From positions 1 to 53,461 of the IMG/VR virus record IMGVR_UViG_3300048599_000841: a stretch of DNA of 53,461 bases; one strand, given 5' to 3'. The number at the start of each line of letters is the position of its first letter. Position 1 is the stretch's first letter. A model generated the notes under the pieces. The model was not told where the DNA came from, searched no databases, and saw nothing but the letters and a program-made list of their open reading frames with translations. The position numbers and the translations under genes are program-made. The DNA is from a virus. Its lineage: Duplodnaviria; Caudoviricetes. Shown in pieces: positions 1,844 to 35,534 of the stretch.

Positions 1844-2097
1844 CCCTCCCGCTTTTTGTCGGTAGATGCCGGCGAGGCCATCCGCATCGCTTCCCGGATC
1901 GCCTCGTCGGTGTAGTAGCTCTTCAGGGACTGGATATTTCCGTCCGAGAGGATGTTGGCAGCCCGCTGGAGTGCGTTGCGGCGCTCCGCTCTGGCTGCCA
2001 TAAGCCTCTGCAGCGCATCGATCCCGGTCAGCAGGCAGACCATCGCAATCAAGCCGGCGCAGAAGCCGGCGAGTACTGAGAGAAGATACCGATCCAT
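1840..2097 (-). CDS. Small membrane protein in the lysis cassette
   Basis: 85 aa with an N-terminal hydrophobic helix; overlaps the lysin stop and the holin start. Confidence 0.6.
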   Translation of the reverse strand: MDRYLLSVLAGFCAGLIAMVCLLTGIDALQRLMAARAERRNALQRAANILSDGNIQSLKSYYTDEAIREAMRMASPASTDKKREG

Positions 2098-27299: not shown

Positions 27300-27398
27300 G
27301 GGCGGAAACCCCACCCCCCGAATATCGCGAAAACTCACGCGAGAGGGGGCCGCGGTCTCCGGCGAGAGCTCCGCAGAGATTCGATCCCCCCTCCCCGG
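27300..27398 (-). other. Putative cos / packaging-initiation region
   Basis: Minus strand GGGGAGGGGGGATCGAATCTCTG...GAGACCGCGGCCCCCTCTCGCGTGAGTTTTCGCGATATT resembles, from recall, the non-coding motif upstream of packaging operons in P27-TerS/HNH siphoviruses; not verified. Confidence 0.5.
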
Positions 27399-27401
27399 CA
27401 C

Positions 27402-27677
27402 ACTTCTCCGAAGCGGAGCGCAAAAGTCCACCGCGCCGGTCGGACTTCTCCGAAGCGGAGCGTGAAAGCCCACCAGGCCTGTGGGACTTCTCCGAAGCGG
27501 AGTGCGAAAGTCCACCAGGCTCGTGGGACTTCTCCGAAGCGGAGCGCGAAAGTCCACCACGCCGGTCGGACTTCTCCGAAGCGGAGCGCGAAAGTCCACC
27601 ACGCCCGTGGGACTTCTCCGAAGCGGAGTGCGAAAGCCCAGCGCGCCGGTCGGACTTCTCCGAAGCGAAGCGCGAAA
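27402..27677. repeat. Tandem array of seven 42-bp units (last one partial) with internal palindromes
   Basis: Units start at 27402, 27444, 27486, 27528, 27570, 27612 and 27654; consensus ACTTCTCCGAAGCGGAGCGCGAAAGTCCACCACGCCGGTCGG. Confidence 0.95.
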
Positions 27678-27862
27678 CTGTGCGCGCGGGCGGGTGGACG
27701 GCGGCGCGGCGGGAGGCGCCTTTGCGGCGCGCGGGCGGGGCACACGGGCGTGGCGGCGGGCCGCGCGGGTGTTCCTTCCTACCACGCGCGTTCGCGCGTA
27801 CGGGCGGCGAGCGCGGCGTGTCGGCGTATCGCAAACGACGCAAAAACAACGGTGTTTGTTAT

Positions 27863-27893
27863 CTTGCTTTTCCGGCGGGGCGGAGCGATTAAT
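27863..27893 (+). promoter_or_regulatory. Putative promoter of the + strand accessory operon (TTGCTT-N18-ATTAAT)
   Basis: CTTGCTTTTCCG...GAGCGATTAAT about 90 nt upstream of the first RBS/ATG. Confidence 0.45.
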
Positions 27894-27980
27894 GGGTCGC
27901 GGGCCGGGGAAAGGCGAAGGTCGCCCCCCGCCCCCGCCGCCGCAGGCGGGAAAAACCGCCGGGCAAAAGGAGCCGATCCC

Positions 27981-28279
27981 ATGACCACCACCGAAAAAAC
28001 CGCCGTTTTGGCCGCCACGCTGCCGCACGGGAAGCCGGGCGCAAAGCCCGCGCCGCCGCAAAAGCCGCCGCGCAAACTCCGTTCCGCGCCACCAAAGCCG
28101 CCGCCGCACACGCCGCCTTCGAGGCCTTCCGCGCCGCCCAAGCCGCACAGGACGCCGCCCTCGGCCTGGACCCCGACGAGGCCTTGGAAGACGCCGAGGT
28201 TTGGGAAACCCATTGCCTCGCGATGGGCGCGGCGGAATTCGCCCGCGCGGCGGCGGACGCCGCCATGACCCGCGCCTGA
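27981..28279 (+). pseudogene. Ala-rich small protein, apparently frameshifted near its start
   Basis: RBS AAAGGAG and ATG 27981 give a Pro-rich product; the -1 frame gives a natural-looking AAREAGRKARAAAK...DPDEALEDAEVWETHC...AMTRA* ending at 28279. Confidence 0.55.
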
Positions 28280-28280
28280 C

Positions 28281-28343
28281 CCTGCCCGACGAGGCCTGGC
28301 GGCTCCGGGCCGAAACCGTCGCAAGGCGGTCGCGGGAGAGCCG
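28281..28343 (+). ncRNA. Type I hammerhead ribozyme A (variant core CCGACGA)
   Basis: Stem I CCUGC/GCGGG; core CCGACGA; stem II GGCCUGG-cggcu-CCGGGCC; GAAA; stem III ACCGUC-gcaa-GGCGGU; GUC site, predicted cut after 28331; loop II CGGCU complementary to AGCCG at 28339-28343. Confidence 0.8.
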
Positions 28344-28369
28344 CAACCCACGGAAGGGAGTGTGTCTCC

Positions 28370-29254
28370 ATGAAGGACCAGACCTTTGGCATCGAGATCG
28401 AGATGAACCACATCTCTCGCGCCAAGGCCGCCCAGATCATCGCCGCCCACTTCGGCACATCGATCGAGTACGTCGGCGGCACCTACGACACCCGGTGTGT
28501 GCCCGACGGGCAAGGCCGGAAGTGGAAGGTGGTCTCCGACGCCAGCATCGCCGGGCCCGCCGACGAACGCACCGAGTTTGTCAGCCCGGTGTGCCGGTGG
28601 GAGGACATCGAAACGGTTCAGGAGTTGGTGCGCAAGCTCCGCAAGGCGGGCGCGAAACCCGATCCCAGCTGCGGCATCCACGTCCACATCGGGCGCGGGC
28701 GGCACACTCCGAAAACCTTGCGGAACCTGGTCAACCTGGTCAACGCCAAGGAGGACCTGCTCACGATGGCTCTCCAAATCTCGCCCGAGCGCCGCGACCG
28801 GTGGTGCAAAAAGGTCGACTCCGACTTCCTCGACCGCCTGAACCGGCGCAAGCCGCAAACCGACGCCGCCTTCGCGCAAGCTTGGTACGACACCACCCAG
28901 TGGCAATTCCACGCACAGCAGCACTACGACCCAAGCCGGTACCACCTCTTGAACCTGCACAGCGTGTTTCAAAAGGGCACCATCGAGTTCCGCGCCTTCA
29001 ACGCGACGCTCCACGCGGGCGAGGTCAAGACCTACATCCAGCTTTGCATGGCGATTTCCCACCAAGCTTTGGAATCAAGTTCGGCCTCCACTCGCCCGCC
29101 GCTCACCGACAACCCGAAGTACACCTTCCGGTGCTGGCTACTGCGGCTGGGGTTCATCGGGGACGAGTTCGAGACCGCCCGTCAGCACTTGCTCAAGCAC
29201 CTGCCCGGCAACGCGGCATGGCGGCAGGCGGACTCCGCCAGGCAGGCCAGCTAA
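28370..29254 (+). CDS. Putative amidoligase (Amidoligase_2 family)
   Basis: TFGIEIE, W.VVSD.SI, EFVSP, SCGIHVHIG, RY..LNL and GTIEFR.FN.TL motifs. Confidence 0.92.
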   Translation: MKDQTFGIEIEMNHISRAKAAQIIAAHFGTSIEYVGGTYDTRCVPDGQGRKWKVVSDASIAGPADERTEFVSPVCRWEDIETVQELVRKLRKAGAKPDPSCGIHVHIGRGRHTPKTLRNLVNLVNAKEDLLTMALQISPERRDRWCKKVDSDFLDRLNRRKPQTDAAFAQAWYDTTQWQFHAQQHYDPSRYHLLNLHSVFQKGTIEFRAFNATLHAGEVKTYIQLCMAISHQALESSSASTRPPLTDNPKYTFRCWLLRLGFIGDEFETARQHLLKHLPGNAAWRQADSARQAS

Positions 29255-29322
29255 CATAGCGAGCAACTGACGGCAGCCCCCGCGAGACACACAGCTTCCA
29301 AATCAAGCGCGCCGCGCCGCGC

Positions 29323-29382
29323 TCCCGCCTGATGAGGGCCGGCGGCTCCGGTCCGAAACGTGACACACATCGCGGGAAGCCA
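29323..29382 (+). ncRNA. Type I hammerhead ribozyme B (canonical core)
   Basis: Stem I UCCCGC/GCGGGA; core CUGAUGA; stem II GGGCCGG-cggcu-CCGGUCC; GAAA; short stem III with one C-A mismatch; AUC site, predicted cut after 29371; loop II pairs with downstream AGCC. Confidence 0.8.
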
Positions 29383-29412
29383 CGCAACTTCCAAATCAGA
29401 AGGAGGTACACC

Positions 29413-29559
29413 ATGAAGAAGTTTGCAATCGGAATCCTTATCGGCCTGATCCTCGGTGCGGTGACAGCCGGAACAACGCTCATGTACAACGCACAGGTCA
29501 GGGGCACCGACAACGGCTACACCATCACGGTCTTTGGTCAGGACTTTGAATACAGGTGA
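29413..29559 (+). CDS. 48-aa small membrane or secreted protein
   Basis: RBS AAGGAGGT; MKKFAIGILIGLILGAVTAG hydrophobic N-terminus. Confidence 0.75.
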   Translation: MKKFAIGILIGLILGAVTAGTTLMYNAQVRGTDNGYTITVFGQDFEYR

Positions 29560-29625
29560 CGCTCGCCCGACGAGCGCCGGGTCGCTCCCAACCGAAACGC
29601 TCCGAAATCAAGGAGCGTCGCGGCG
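29560..29625 (+). ncRNA. Hammerhead-like copy C (stem II damaged)
   Basis: CCGACGA core at 29567-29573; GAAAC; perfect stem III ACGCUCC/GGAGCGU; GUC at 29617-29619; stem II 3' strand is CCCAAC where copy E has CCCGGC. Confidence 0.65.
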
Positions 29626-29678
29626 GGGGCAGACCTTCCGCAAGCGGAAGCTTCCGAATCAAATGCAGGAGGTTCACC

Positions 29679-30062
29679 ATGAATTTCTTCGAACAGCAGC
29701 TTCGCGGCCTTACCGGCAAGACCACCGCTTTCAAATCAGCCAGCCCGGTCTTCATCGGCAGAGCCTGCTTCCTCACACTGAGCGAAGGCCGCAGGGCGCG
29801 GTTGGAGTTCATCACCCTCGGCACGGCCGACCAATACGAAGCCCTGCAGGTCAGCGTCATCAACCTGAACGACGGTAAAATCGACTGCATCCAGTTGCGC
29901 TTTTCCGATTACTTCGCGCCCAAGCGGACAGTTAGCGGCGATGCGCGCGCGCCTCACATCTGGGTGTACCAAGGCAAAGCCGAGTGGTACGGCGAACCGG
30001 CCGAAACCGAGAAGGCCGCGCTTTCAAAAGCTGCCAGCGACTACGTCAAGCTCTTCGCCTAA
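29679..30062 (+). CDS. Hypothetical protein (127 aa)
   Basis: RBS AGGAGG; MNFFEQQL start. Confidence 0.8.
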   Translation: MNFFEQQLRGLTGKTTAFKSASPVFIGRACFLTLSEGRRARLEFITLGTADQYEALQVSVINLNDGKIDCIQLRFSDYFAPKRTVSGDARAPHIWVYQGKAEWYGEPAETEKAALSKAASDYVKLFA

Positions 30063-30090
30063 CGCTTTCAAATCAAGAGGAGGATTTCTC

Positions 30091-30420
30091 ATGAAACGGC
30101 AATTCGCGGTTCGTCTACTCGTAAATGCCTACGCCACTGTAGAAGCCGACACACCCGAAGAGGCTGCGGAGCTCGCTCGATCTCTGAACTTGAGCACCTG
30201 CGCCTTCGACGACTACATCGACTCGTCGGATGTCACGGTGGGCGATGAACTCACACCCGCCAAACGCGCCGGGCCGCGCCTTGCCGAAACGCTCCTGAAT
30301 CAAGGGGCGTCGCGGGAAGCTGAAACGCTGGCGAAAGCATCCAGATCAATCAAAGGAGGCACACCCCATGAACGATCAAGCGAGACAGGAGCTTCGGGAG
30401 CATCTGGCCATCCTGCGTAA
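30091..30420 (+). CDS. Hypothetical protein (VEADTPEEA.ELA motif), probably C-terminally extended by loss of a stop at 30262
   Basis: RBS GAGGAGG; reads through hammerhead-like copy D and overlaps the next gene. Confidence 0.65.
   Translation: MKRQFAVRLLVNAYATVEADTPEEAAELARSLNLSTCAFDDYIDSSDVTVGDELTPAKRAGPRLAETLLNQGASREAETLAKASRSIKGGTPHERSSETGASGASGHPA
30256..30316 (+). ncRNA. Degenerate hammerhead-like copy D
   Basis: Stem I CCCGC/GCGGG, GAAAC, stem III and GUC (30309-30311) retained; core is CAAACGC and stem II is weakened. Confidence 0.55.
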
Positions 30421-30622
30421 AAGCCCCGTCAACTACCGCACGTATCTCATCGAAATGGGCATCGTCACCGGCATGCTCGCCGCCGTCAACGCGCTCACCG
30501 GCAGCGCCTGGACGCTGGTGGAATCGGAATGCCTGCAGGAGCATTACGCCCACAACGAGGCGACCGGCGAACACATCGCGGCCACCAAATGGCTTGAGGA
30601 TCAAGGAGGCGAACGCAAATGA
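30368..30622 (+). CDS. Hypothetical protein (84 aa)
   Basis: RBS AAAGGAGG. Confidence 0.75.
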   Translation: MNDQARQELREHLAILRKSPVNYRTYLIEMGIVTGMLAAVNALTGSAWTLVESECLQEHYAHNEATGEHIAATKWLEDQGGERK

Positions 30623-30822
30623 AGATCACGACCCTTTCCCAATGCATGGACATTCTCGACTGGTTCGACGACCCGCTCTACGAGTACCTGAATCATATCC
30701 TGCTCTCCAAGCTGGACGGTGAAGCGCGCGTCACACGGGCGCTGCCCGACATCATCGGCCACGCGGAGGCGCTGGTGCGCAGCACGCGGGCACAGAGGCC
30801 GCGTACCCCGTCGAACTCCTGA
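30619..30822 (+). CDS. Hypothetical protein (67 aa)
   Basis: RBS AAGGAGG; ATGA coupling with the upstream gene. Confidence 0.75.
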   Translation: MKITTLSQCMDILDWFDDPLYEYLNHILLSKLDGEARVTRALPDIIGHAEALVRSTRAQRPRTPSNS

Positions 30823-30826
30823 ATCA

Positions 30827-30888
30827 GCCCGCCAAACGCGCCGGGTCGCTCCCGGCCGAAACGCTCCGAAATCAAGGAGCGTCGCGGC
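30827..30888 (+). ncRNA. Degenerate hammerhead-like copy E
   Basis: Stem II GCCGGG-ucgcu-CCCGGC, GAAAC, perfect stem III, GUC at 30881-30883; core is CAAACGC; near-duplicate of copy C and its downstream hairpin. Confidence 0.6.
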
Positions 30889-30944
30889 GGGGGTGGACCT
30901 TCCGCAAGCGGAAGCTTTCAAATCAACCAAAGGAGGCAAGGCCT

Positions 30945-31184
30945 ATGCAAATCACGCAGGCGCCCATCCAGACCAAATCGCTGAAGGACGCACTCACTAA
31001 GGCGACGCACCTCGGCTTCAGCCAGGCGGAAACCGCTATCGGCACCCATCGGCCCATCGACGAATGGCTGAAGGAGCTTTCCGAATCAGGTGGCGGCTGC
31101 GGTGGCTACGCCCTTTTCGGTAGCGTCATCGTCCGCATCCGGGACGTATGGCAGCGGGACGCCGAGGTTGTCCACCCTGACTGA
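30945..31184 (+). CDS. Hypothetical protein (79 aa)
   Basis: RBS AAAGGAGG. Confidence 0.7.
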   Translation: MQITQAPIQTKSLKDALTKATHLGFSQAETAIGTHRPIDEWLKELSESGGGCGGYALFGSVIVRIRDVWQRDAEVVHPD

Positions 31185-31219
31185 TCCGCAGCTTTGAAAT
31201 CAAGGCGAGGAGGCACACC

Positions 31220-31405
31220 ATGAAAAAGGTCTTTTCTCTGGAGGGCGAGCGGATCACCCTCAAACGCGCCAAGGAGCTTCTTGGGGAAAAGCGCTACAAG
31301 AGGTTCGTCGGTCTCTCCAAGGCCATCTTCCTTACAGATCCGGTCGCGGAATACCGCTGCGCGACCAACGAAGGCATCCTGACCGTCTACTTCCGCATTG
31401 ATTGA
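31220..31405 (+). CDS. Hypothetical basic protein (61 aa)
   Basis: RBS GAGGAGG. Confidence 0.7.
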   Translation: MKKVFSLEGERITLKRAKELLGEKRYKRFVGLSKAIFLTDPVAEYRCATNEGILTVYFRID

Positions 31406-31449
31406 TGCCCACGCAACATTTACACTTTGAAATCAAGGAGGAACCCCCT

Positions 31450-31914
31450 ATGAAATACATCGCCTACGGCTCCAACATGAGCACCGGGCAAATGGAATAC
31501 CGCTGCCCGGATGCCAGGCTCGTCGATGTCGGCCGCATCCATGGCGCGCAGCTGGAGTTCTTCATCCATGCCACCGTAGAACTCTCCCAAATCAAGGACG
31601 CCTTCGTGCCCGTCGCGGTCTGGGAAATCTCCGAACGGGATGAGAAGCGTTTGGACAGGTACGAGGGCTTCCCCAACTACTACATTAAGGAGGAGTGGCC
31701 GGTCACCCTGGCGGATGGCTCTGACATCACCGGCATGATCTACCTCATGCGCACAAAGCGGGGCGATGTACCCGCCATGGGATACTACGAGGGCATCCGC
31801 TCCGCCTACGAGGATTTGGGGCTGCGTTCCGAAATCAAGTCGGCGCTGGAGTCCGCGCTGCGCAGGTCAATGTACCGACGGTTCCGGCTCGCAACCGGCC
31901 GCCGTGCCAAATGA
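31450..31914 (+). CDS. Gamma-glutamylcyclotransferase family protein
   Basis: Y.AYGSNM...QM..RCP and DE..LDRYEG.P..Y motifs; RBS AAGGAGG. Confidence 0.92.
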   Translation: MKYIAYGSNMSTGQMEYRCPDARLVDVGRIHGAQLEFFIHATVELSQIKDAFVPVAVWEISERDEKRLDRYEGFPNYYIKEEWPVTLADGSDITGMIYLMRTKRGDVPAMGYYEGIRSAYEDLGLRSEIKSALESALRRSMYRRFRLATGRRAK

Positions 31915-34201: not shown

Positions 34202-34587
34202 ATTGCTATACCTCCTGCTTATTGTCTCTTAAGGCCAATCCACGATATTGCCTATTGCATCAGAGCAAGCCCCATCTGTCTGACGGAATCGCGTGATTTG
34301 CTGCCTCTTCCCTTCACATCCTCTCTTCTACCTATATAGACAATTTGCACGAATAATTTGTAACTATTTTTATGTAAATGTTTGGTTAATCCCTTTGCGT
34401 GACAGATACGATCGTTAGTTGTTTGCGTTATCAGAAGCGTGTATAATTGCACGGCTGGGTCCAGACATAAAATCCCGGCGAGGGCGGCTTTCCTCGTCCG
34501 GTGCCGAGAACGGTGCTTTAAAATCACTCGCTCTTAGGCAAGAGAAAAGCGGCCCCCGCATCGAGGACCGCCGCTGCTCCAGATACC

Positions 34588-35118
34588 TTATCCACCCTGC
34601 TTGGAAATCAAATCGCCCGCGACCTCAATACCCTCCGCCGTGCTTTTGAATCGGACGACGATCTCGCCGTCTGCGGCCTTATAGCGCGCATGGAAGGGGG
34701 AATCCCAAAGCTCCGTGAGTCCCGGGCAGTTTTGCTTCGCCGCCTTCCGGTATTCATCGAAGTCCTCATATTCGTGCTCGTCCTGCCAGCGTTCGAACAG
34801 CGTGGTCAGGAACCGGATGTGTTCCTGGGCGATCCGCGCCCACAGTGCCTGCATGGTCAAGCCGGCCGTGTCTTCGGACGACACGTCCTCCTTGAAGCAT
34901 GCCCACTGGTTCAGGGGCAGCGGGTTCCGCATCATGGCGAGCATCGCCTCGGCGGTCCCACACTCATCACAGACAAACACATCCGCGCTGCGGCTCAAGG
35001 CATTTCGAACGGGTTCTTCGTTCATGGCATCCCGCCCGCAGCGCGGACAAGAGAGCCGCTCGCCCGCCAGTTGGCGCGCTTTTAAATCAAGCAGCCTTGC
35101 CTCCATGTCCGTGATCAC
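34588..35118 (-). CDS. Hypothetical protein with a zinc-ribbon
   Basis: CPRCG...NALSR....VCDECG..EAM. Confidence 0.75.
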   Translation of the reverse strand: MITDMEARLLDLKARQLAGERLSCPRCGRDAMNEEPVRNALSRSADVFVCDECGTAEAMLAMMRNPLPLNQWACFKEDVSSEDTAGLTMQALWARIAQEHIRFLTTLFERWQDEHEYEDFDEYRKAAKQNCPGLTELWDSPFHARYKAADGEIVVRFKSTAEGIEVAGDLISKQGG

Positions 35119-35450
35119 TCCGCATCCCCCTTCCTTGGCAGCTCGTGGGTGAGGAAGGCGTGATAGATCCTGCCGTCGTCCAGCACACCGCGCTTGTACA
35201 TCTCGATGGCCAGCGCGCCCCCTCGGGCATGACAGGCATGAAGGATATCATCCGTCTCCATCTCATCCCCGCCCAGCTTCTGAATCAAATCGCGATCCGC
35301 TTCTACCAACAGTGCCGCCGCTTGGGTAAACTCCGGATAGGCGTCCGAATTCGCCTTCGCCTCCCGCTCGAACCGGGTGCTCTGCCAGTCTGCGATATCG
35401 TCCGTGTATGCTCCGATCTCGTCAAAGATGTTCCGTTCCATTACGATCAC
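35115..35450 (-). CDS. Hypothetical protein
   Basis: RBS GGAGGTG; coupled to the next gene. Confidence 0.7.
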   Translation of the reverse strand: MIVMERNIFDEIGAYTDDIADWQSTRFEREAKANSDAYPEFTQAAALLVEADRDLIQKLGGDEMETDDILHACHARGGALAIEMYKRGVLDDGRIYHAFLTHELPRKGDAE

Positions 35451-35534
35451 CTCCGCTTTAGAATCATGGTGATATTACCGTAATGCCCGCCATATATCCA
35501 GCGACAAAACGGAGAACTCTCTGACCGAGAAACG

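Follow-up and report, generated by a model that had tools for sequence, protein, structure and literature searches.

Arrays of hammerhead ribozymes have been described in bacterial prophages. According to Perreault et al. 2011 (PMC3088659), multiple prophage hammerheads flank single genes or short blocks whose gene content varies; the arrays tested there came from Clostridium scindens, Azorhizobium and Agrobacterium, and polycistronic constructs of three bacteria were cut in vitro. The same study describes pseudoknots that replace the loop-loop contacts in all three hammerhead types, as well as weak stems III and core variants in phage copies, some of which are possibly inactive. The accepted view of such arrays is that they let the polycistronic RNA process itself (Perreault et al. 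2011, PMC3088659). Here we analyze the complete provirus record IMGVR_UViG_3300048599_000841 (53,461 base pairs [bp]; the whole of this stretch is called the window below), in which five related elements, named A to E, are strung along an operon that runs from an amidoligase gene to a gamma-glutamyl cyclotransferase (GGCT) gene. Our reading, to which we give a probability of roughly 0.7, is that the five are members of one type I hammerhead family, of which A and B most likely self-cleave, C is marginal or dead, and D and E are relics.

As in the arrays of Perreault et al. 2011 (PMC3088659), the copies are co-oriented, the five of them lying in 2.6 kilobases (kb) among the plus-strand open reading frames (ORFs) of a single provirus operon. 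Unlike the tested arrays, the present copies make up a type I subfamily of Christensenellales/Oscillospiraceae prophages that is tied to an amidoligase-GGCT module and to a leader motif of 12 nucleotides (nt). Moreover, three of the five copies in the window are decayed. The locus is a new example of the known prophage hammerhead arrays, not a new mechanism. In the literature library searched, no paper joins “hammerhead ribozyme” with “amidoligase,” or “hammerhead” with “Heliusvir,” and the supplementary alignments of Perreault et al. 2011 may already list the subfamily.

The homology of the five elements was established with a covariance model, R1, built from relatives. The source was a set of 51 IMG/VR loci encoding amidoligase relatives, in which seeds were picked by a regular expression that fixed the stem I arms, the 7-nt core slot, GAA, and the U-H-GCG context but did not require pairing in stem II or III; 49 elements, none of them from the window, were aligned with MAFFT. 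When R1 was run on both strands of the whole window with filters off, it returned exactly five matches, all on the plus strand, with expectation values (E) from 9e-12 to 8e-6, the sixth-ranked candidate reaching 15.3 bits (E 0.07). These are the five places where the initial annotation, made from the sequence alone, had put related elements, and its view of them as hammerhead-family elements between genes of one plus-strand operon is thus supported.

The seed alignment also carries the evidence for the structure. The hammerhead structure is 98.5% paired in the 49 elements, versus 82.7% in shuffles, and none of 500 shuffles matched the observed value on any of five pairing measures. The three helices are 97-100% paired across the family with compensatory changes, both sides having changed in 9 of the 15 pairs. 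When the 3′ partners were displaced by 1 to 3 columns as a control, pairing fell to 27-46%. Covariation is carried by stems II and III, which covary strongly in homologues, while stem I is nearly invariant and contributes little. At the family level, selection on structure, which had been proposed from the five copies, is supported, and so is a covarying pseudoknot between loop II and the tail 3′ of stem I.

To define the family outside the window, R1 was run on 132 loci, namely, 52 from other phages and 80 from GTDB genomes, the hosts of the latter being Candidatus Limiplasma, other Christensenellales, Oscillospiraceae, and other Clostridia. It gave 226 matches (87 in the phage loci and 139 in the GTDB loci), every one on the amidoligase strand, with 1 to 8 copies per locus in 93 of the 132 loci. 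Neither R1 nor Rfam gave a match in the 16 most distant of the tested loci, whose hosts are Lacrimispora and the like, showing that the link between amidoligase and hammerhead is not universal. The core reads CUGANGA in 69 of the 77 unique elements of the viral set (the window's five are among the 77) and in 119 of 128 unique GTDB elements. Of the unique scorable elements from outside the window, 181 of 186 have GUC as the cleavage triplet (64/68 viral and 117/118 GTDB). An additional unpaired U stands between A9 and the first stem II pair in 101 of 193 unique elements (41/70 and 60/123), and many elements devoid of this U have a G10.1-C11.1 pair followed by a one-base bulge.

The pseudoknot is supported by the types of loop and tail that occur together. 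GGC is found in almost every loop II, and GCC in the tail that follows stem I; 54 of 70 elements have both and 10 of 70 have neither (Fisher p 1.5e-7), and the alternative types match up as well, GGU loops with ACC tails and GCGG with CCGC. A test based on the longest helix gave a moderate result: helices of 4 bp or more formed in 58 of 77 elements, versus approximately 39% when the tails were shuffled and 27 of 77 when upstream sequence was used, and the case for the pseudoknot thus rests on the association of loop and tail types. A pseudoknot likewise provides tertiary stabilization in the hammerhead of Zhan et al. 2024 (PMC11300833). There, however, the pseudoknot helix substitutes for helix II and is formed with an extra stem-loop on helix I, whereas here helix II is intact and its own loop makes the pairing, with the tail 3′ of stem I.

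The architecture that we propose for the family thus has an open stem I, and loop II would pair with the tail directly 3′ of that stem. In both A and B, the sequence and the R1 alignment show a junction of three helices, of which stem I is open while loops close stems II and III. Element A (28280-28352, plus strand; R1 52.5 bits) is a type I hammerhead whose core, CCGACGA, has C in place of U at position 4 (U4C). Its stem I comprises 5 bp (28281-28285/28332-28336) and its stem II 7 bp (28293-28299/28305-28311); GAAA occupies 28312-28315, and stem III (28315-28330) is a perfect 6-bp helix with a GCAA loop. C17 is nucleotide 28331, which places the predicted cut at 28331/28332. The pseudoknot CGGCU:AGCCG joins loop II (28300-28304) to the tail (28339-28343) and can be extended to 7 bp, the longest of the set, and the base pairs next to the core (10.1-11.1, 1.1-2.1, and the 15.2-16.2 region) are all intact. 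The slot before the amidoligase gene holds C4 in the window and also in its nearest relatives, loci L002 and L068, whose amidoligases are 89% and 86% identical to that of the window. The stems II and III of this slot differ by compensatory changes, which argues that the C4 form is held by selection. Another four C4 copies with intact stems are found in four GTDB loci.

Element B (29323-29391, plus strand; R1 55.8 bits, E 9e-12) is a type I hammerhead with the canonical core CUGAUGA (29329-29335). Stem I is formed by 29324-29328/29372-29376 and stem II by the 7 bp of 29336-29342/29348-29354, followed by GAAA (29355-29358) and a weak stem III (29358-29370). C17 is nucleotide 29371, with a predicted cut at 29371/29372, and a 4-bp pseudoknot pairs GGCU (29344-29347) with AGCC (29378-29381). 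The initial annotation was correct on the cores (CUGAUGA in B, CCGACGA in A and C) and on the pseudoknots of A and B, and the cut positions that it predicted for A, B and C agree with the sequence.

Several observations weigh against ribozyme activity of A and B. Mutagenesis by Ruffner et al. in 1990 reportedly found changes at U4, a conserved core position, to be strongly deleterious in minimal ribozymes. In B, a C·A mismatch interrupts stem III at 15.2/16.2, contrary to the annotated pairing of stem III in every copy. This mismatch adjoins the essential A15.1-U16.1 pair and is absent from L002 and L068, where stem III of the B slot is fully paired, and the minimum-free-energy (MFE) fold of B lacks stem III. 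Every copy in the window deviates in some way from the family consensus, and the window copies rank among the lowest R1 scores of the viral set, B with 55.8 and A with 52.5 bits versus 54-84 for nearly all other full-length members. Finally, Rfam searches up to E = 10 (27800-31400 and 28270-29400) reported no hammerhead for A, B, C, or E.

This last result was put in perspective by searches of canonical relatives. At gathering scores, Rfam had no match in the entire window. Its models, of which we take RF00163 and RF00008 to be those of the type I and type III hammerheads, share the core consensus and the three-helix junction with this family and yet match neither A, B, nor canonical relatives even at E = 10. 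Thus, Christensenellales phage NatCom_6392 (GenBank; locus L001), which has the same ParB–amidoligase–GGCT synteny as the window, contains two elements that follow the textbook order CCCGC-CUGACGA-stem II-GAAAC-stem III-GUC-GCGGG, and both were missed. So were the two top-scoring members of the family, in L051, even in a 721-nt search. Because canonical relatives in L001 and L051 escape detection too, the Rfam blank for A and B is not evidence against hammerheads. The covariance-model check suggested in the initial annotation therefore gave a false negative for A and B with Rfam and five matches with R1. The sole Rfam match was a weak type II reading of D (Hammerhead_II, RF02276; 19.2 bits versus a threshold of 37, E 1.8). 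It is below threshold and demands a non-consensus CUGGCGA core plus an unpaired stem I.

Minimum-free-energy folding gave no signal for A (z -0.86) or B (z -0.78), and with the G+C content as high as it is here, none of the z-scores of A to D reaches significance, although the MFE structure of A is a three-way junction. The support for A and B as candidate ribozymes comes from comparison with relatives, not from folding energy. Taking these points together, A is probably active but slow, owing to U4C, and B is probably active but weakened, owing to the mismatch beside the A15.1-U16.1 pair. A precedent for C4 in a natural, tertiary-stabilized ribozyme is a viroid hammerhead, which is of type III, whereas A is a prophage type I element. 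According to the discussion of Perreault et al. 2011 (PMC3088659), the U4C variant of this viroid is much less active in vitro yet sufficient in vivo.

The other three copies are in a different state. All five elements retain GAAA(C), a stem III hairpin closed by an A-U pair, and then GUC (C17) and GCGG, so that this part of the common layout that had been annotated holds throughout. The rest of the layout does not, since in D and E the strand from C3 to A9 is replaced by CAAACG, leaving G5, A6, and A9 with no counterpart, and stem II of C is vestigial. Element C (29561-29638, plus strand; R1 32.2 bits, its alignment flagging non-pairs in both stem I and stem II) has the U4C core CCGACGA, a stem I of 4 bp, and no AGCC tail. 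Its stem II is reduced to one G-C closing pair plus GGG/CCC, with four non-pairs after 10.1-11.1, while its stem III is GCUCC/GGAGC with the loop GAAAUCAA. Its predicted cut position would be 29619/29620. Element D (30255-30331, plus strand; R1 37.6 bits) has, in addition to CAAACG in place of CUGANGA, an altered stem II, but keeps GAAAC, stem III, and GUC (C at 30311). No stop codon precedes it, contrary to its annotated place at a gene junction, and it sits within an ORF (30091-30420) that reads through it. Element E (30829-30887, plus strand; R1 31.4 bits) carries the same replacement; its stems I, II, and III are intact, and it folds as a stable three-way junction lacking the catalytic strand (MFE -39.3 kcal/mol, z -3.3). 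The loop II/tail pseudoknot is absent from C, D, and E.

C and E share 90% identity across a 99-nt stretch (29574-29672 versus 30838-30936) that takes in the hairpin, motif, and Shine-Dalgarno sequence downstream of each, C holding the better core and E the better stem II. This identity suggests a recent duplication or gene conversion between junctions. The D/E form was sought elsewhere as well. Ten IMG/VR contigs share a 17-mer with it, but they gave no R1 match, and as none carries a hammerhead-like element, the sharing was taken as chance.

From the homology, the family covariation, the strand exclusivity, and the positions of the elements, we infer cleavage and its effect on expression as follows. 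The family would punctuate the amidoligase-to-GGCT accessory operon of Christensenellales and Oscillospiraceae prophages. In the window, A would be cut between 28331 and 28332, 38 nt ahead of the amidoligase start codon, and B between 29371 and 29372, 41 nt ahead of the next start codon. Each cut would leave a 2′,3′-cyclic phosphate on the upstream RNA and a downstream leader that begins with a 5′ hydroxyl (5′-OH) and bears the ribosome-binding site. The two cuts together would free the amidoligase cistron, with its 38-nt 5′-OH leader, from a downstream block with a 41-nt leader. The junctions at C, D, and E would be left uncut, with D and E persisting as structured intergenic spacers. No terminator-like sites of note were found inside the operon, which makes a polycistronic RNA plausible. 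In phage T7, RNase III processes the early polycistronic mRNA, and in T4, promoter-stem-loop cassettes mediate gene shuffling. As in those phages, intercistronic structures would here split a phage transcript and repeated cassettes would bound variable small genes. The T7 and T4 systems need a host enzyme or promoters, however, whereas here the RNA would cut itself.

The hammerheads share the operon with the 12-nt leader motif, GCTTYCRAATCA. Allowing up to two mismatches, 15 copies are found on the plus strand in 29066-31594, starting at 29066, 29294, 29387, 29599, 29650, 29727, 30064, 30291, 30337, 30863, 30914, 31077, 31191, 31424, and 31583. Most of the sites in the operon lie just 5′ of Shine-Dalgarno sequences, others occupy stem III loops (those of C, D, and E), and some fall within ORFs. 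The whole window contains 34 matches versus 14.2 ± 4.3 expected, a number that none of 100 shuffles reached. Plus-strand sites at 34515-35466 were treated as chance, as they are antisense to minus-strand genes and read as their codons. In the 132 related loci, the motif at up to one mismatch occurs 748 times on the plus strand versus 21 times on the minus strand. Its typical place is 0-5 nt ahead of a Shine-Dalgarno sequence. Of 70 unique hammerheads, 53 are followed by the motif within 45 nt and 27 are preceded by it; in 27 of 193 elements the stem III loop contains it, and at one GGCT-gene site it is retained in two reading frames. Its pairing with host 16S ribosomal RNA (rRNA) was considered and rejected, as the longest helix, 8 bp, was equalled by 140 of 200 shuffles.

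This distribution raises the possibility that the leader motif is the important junction signal, e.g., a protein-dependent processing or translation-control site, and that the hammerheads are optional passengers beside it. Within the 132 loci the motif is far commoner than the hammerhead (748 versus 226) and equally strand-specific. It is present in 10-13 copies in loci devoid of any hammerhead (L020, L027, L095, and L107), and it marks the window junctions that have none (30064, 31191, and 31424). We nevertheless consider this explanation rather unlikely. The complementarity of the motif to host 16S rRNA is no better than chance, and its pairing with the ribozyme tail does not covary. Furthermore, a role of the motif is compatible with ribozyme activity of A and B.

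The hammerhead and the motif might also act together. The ribozyme tail and the 5′ half of the motif form a mean longest helix of 5.08, versus 3.98 with shuffled motif halves, and none of 300 shuffles was as high. No covariation was detected for this tail/motif hairpin, the mean being 5.03 after swapping of partners, with 253 of 1000 permutations as high. A tentative proposal, which we think unlikely, is that the hammerhead and GCTTYCRAATCA(A) constitute a two-part intercistronic cassette. Once freed by cleavage, the tail GCGGGAAGC would base-pair with GCUUCC, one half of the motif, capping the 5′-OH end by a hairpin and resetting Shine-Dalgarno access, and the units would double as homology for the shuffling of small accessory genes between the amidoligase and GGCT genes. 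As part of this same tentative proposal, GCTTYCRAATCA(A) would represent an undescribed nucleic-acid signal of this phage clade.

The assignment of A and B as self-cleaving must further be weighed against the possibility that all five elements are now inactive and kept only as structured intergenic spacers or as recombination homology. Each copy departs at least once from the consensus and three of the five are plainly decayed, and decayed copies are found in relatives too (L034:8162, L026:7303, L106:5006, and L116:1991). Neutral decay would not be expected, however, to leave perfect stems and the longest pseudoknot in the A slot, which are kept through compensatory changes in three relatives. 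The core of B is flawless, and U4C is viable in vivo in a viroid according to the discussion of Perreault et al. 2011 (PMC3088659). We therefore regard loss of activity in all five as improbable. The opposite extreme, that all five self-cleave and release every gene unit, was the reading of the initial annotation and could invoke the GAAAC, stem III, and GUC retained in all copies and the very stable three-way junction of E, but it is very improbable given that D and E carry CAAACG instead of C3-A9, with no counterpart of G5, A6, and A9, in a form not found in other phage hammerheads (no R1 match in the ten contigs sharing the 17-mer), that C lacks stem II and the pseudoknot, and that D lies inside an ORF. 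In the interpretation that we favor, A and B are thus the only plausible cutters, with one defect each; C is doubtful.

Most genes of the provirus are on the minus strand, and the elements belong to a plus-strand operon (approximately 27.98-31.91 kb), which diverges from a ParB_N/DNA-methylase gene (Pfam). It comprises the amidoligase gene (28370-29254; Pfam PF12224, E 6e-65), seven small ORFs with no Pfam family, and, as the final gene, the AIG2-like GGCT gene (31450-31914; Pfam PF06094, E 2e-10), all on the plus strand. The first small ORF (29413-29559) encodes a hydrophobic product of 48 amino acids (aa), and the second (29679-30062) has 127 aa. The third (30091-30420; 109 aa), which is the one that reads through element D, overlaps the start of the next gene by 53 nt. 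Its first 54 aa have no homologue among the 132 loci, and it looks as though repeat D took over the original 3′ end of the gene. The remaining four span 30368-30622 (84 aa), 30619-30822 (67 aa), 30945-31184 (79 aa), and 31220-31405 (61 aa).

What precedes element A is less clear than had been annotated, as the stop codon shortly before it is uncertain. The frame that ends at the TGA at 28277-28279 is open from 27893, alanine-rich, and the more protein-like, but has no start with a ribosome-binding site. An ATG that does have a ribosome-binding site, at 27982, opens a different, proline-rich frame that ends at 28268. This two-frame situation in 27893-28279 could reflect a frameshift, an assembly indel, or non-coding sequence. 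Farther upstream, the gap between the ParB_N/methylase gene and the operon contains seven tandem 42-nt units (27360-27737), which may be a ParB-binding or replication-related array. The equivalent gap of phage NatCom_6392 has G-rich repeats containing GAAAA, and in that phage a transfer RNA gene (1957-2027, minus strand; 60.4 bits) lies between the ParB-like gene and the amidoligase operon.

The small ORFs that separate the amidoligase gene from the GGCT gene are patchily distributed among relatives, each being present in only 0 to 23 of the 132 loci. The 127-aa ORF has homologues in five of them. The 48-aa ORF has one in a single locus, L068, the closest GTDB relative, where it occupies another slot of the operon. 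Comparison of 29370-29559 of the window with 6432-6622 of L068 places the breakpoint of homology at 29370, in the 3′ part of element B. The displaced ORF and the breakpoint are consistent with shuffling by way of the repeated ribozyme/leader units but do not prove it. The earlier suggestion that the repeats act as gene-shuffling modules thereby gains some support, from the patchy small ORFs and one rearrangement breakpoint in the 3′ tail of B.

The principle that prophages cut polycistronic RNAs with hammerheads is unchanged by these findings. What the locus adds is, within one operon, a natural series that would begin with a working ribozyme, pass through a core variant that is tolerated, and end with a dead relic; such a series offers a way to ask how much hammerhead activity a phage requires. 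The C4 variant, kept with compensatory changes in the stems, is a testable natural deviation of the core. A scan with curated models alone would have wrongly dismissed the finding, as Rfam misses a subfamily with 231 matches in the window and the 132 loci. Finally, the abundance of GCTTYCRAATCA and the way in which small ORFs turn over like cassettes suggest that widespread prophages of gut bacteria and anaerobes have a level of expression control that is still unstudied.

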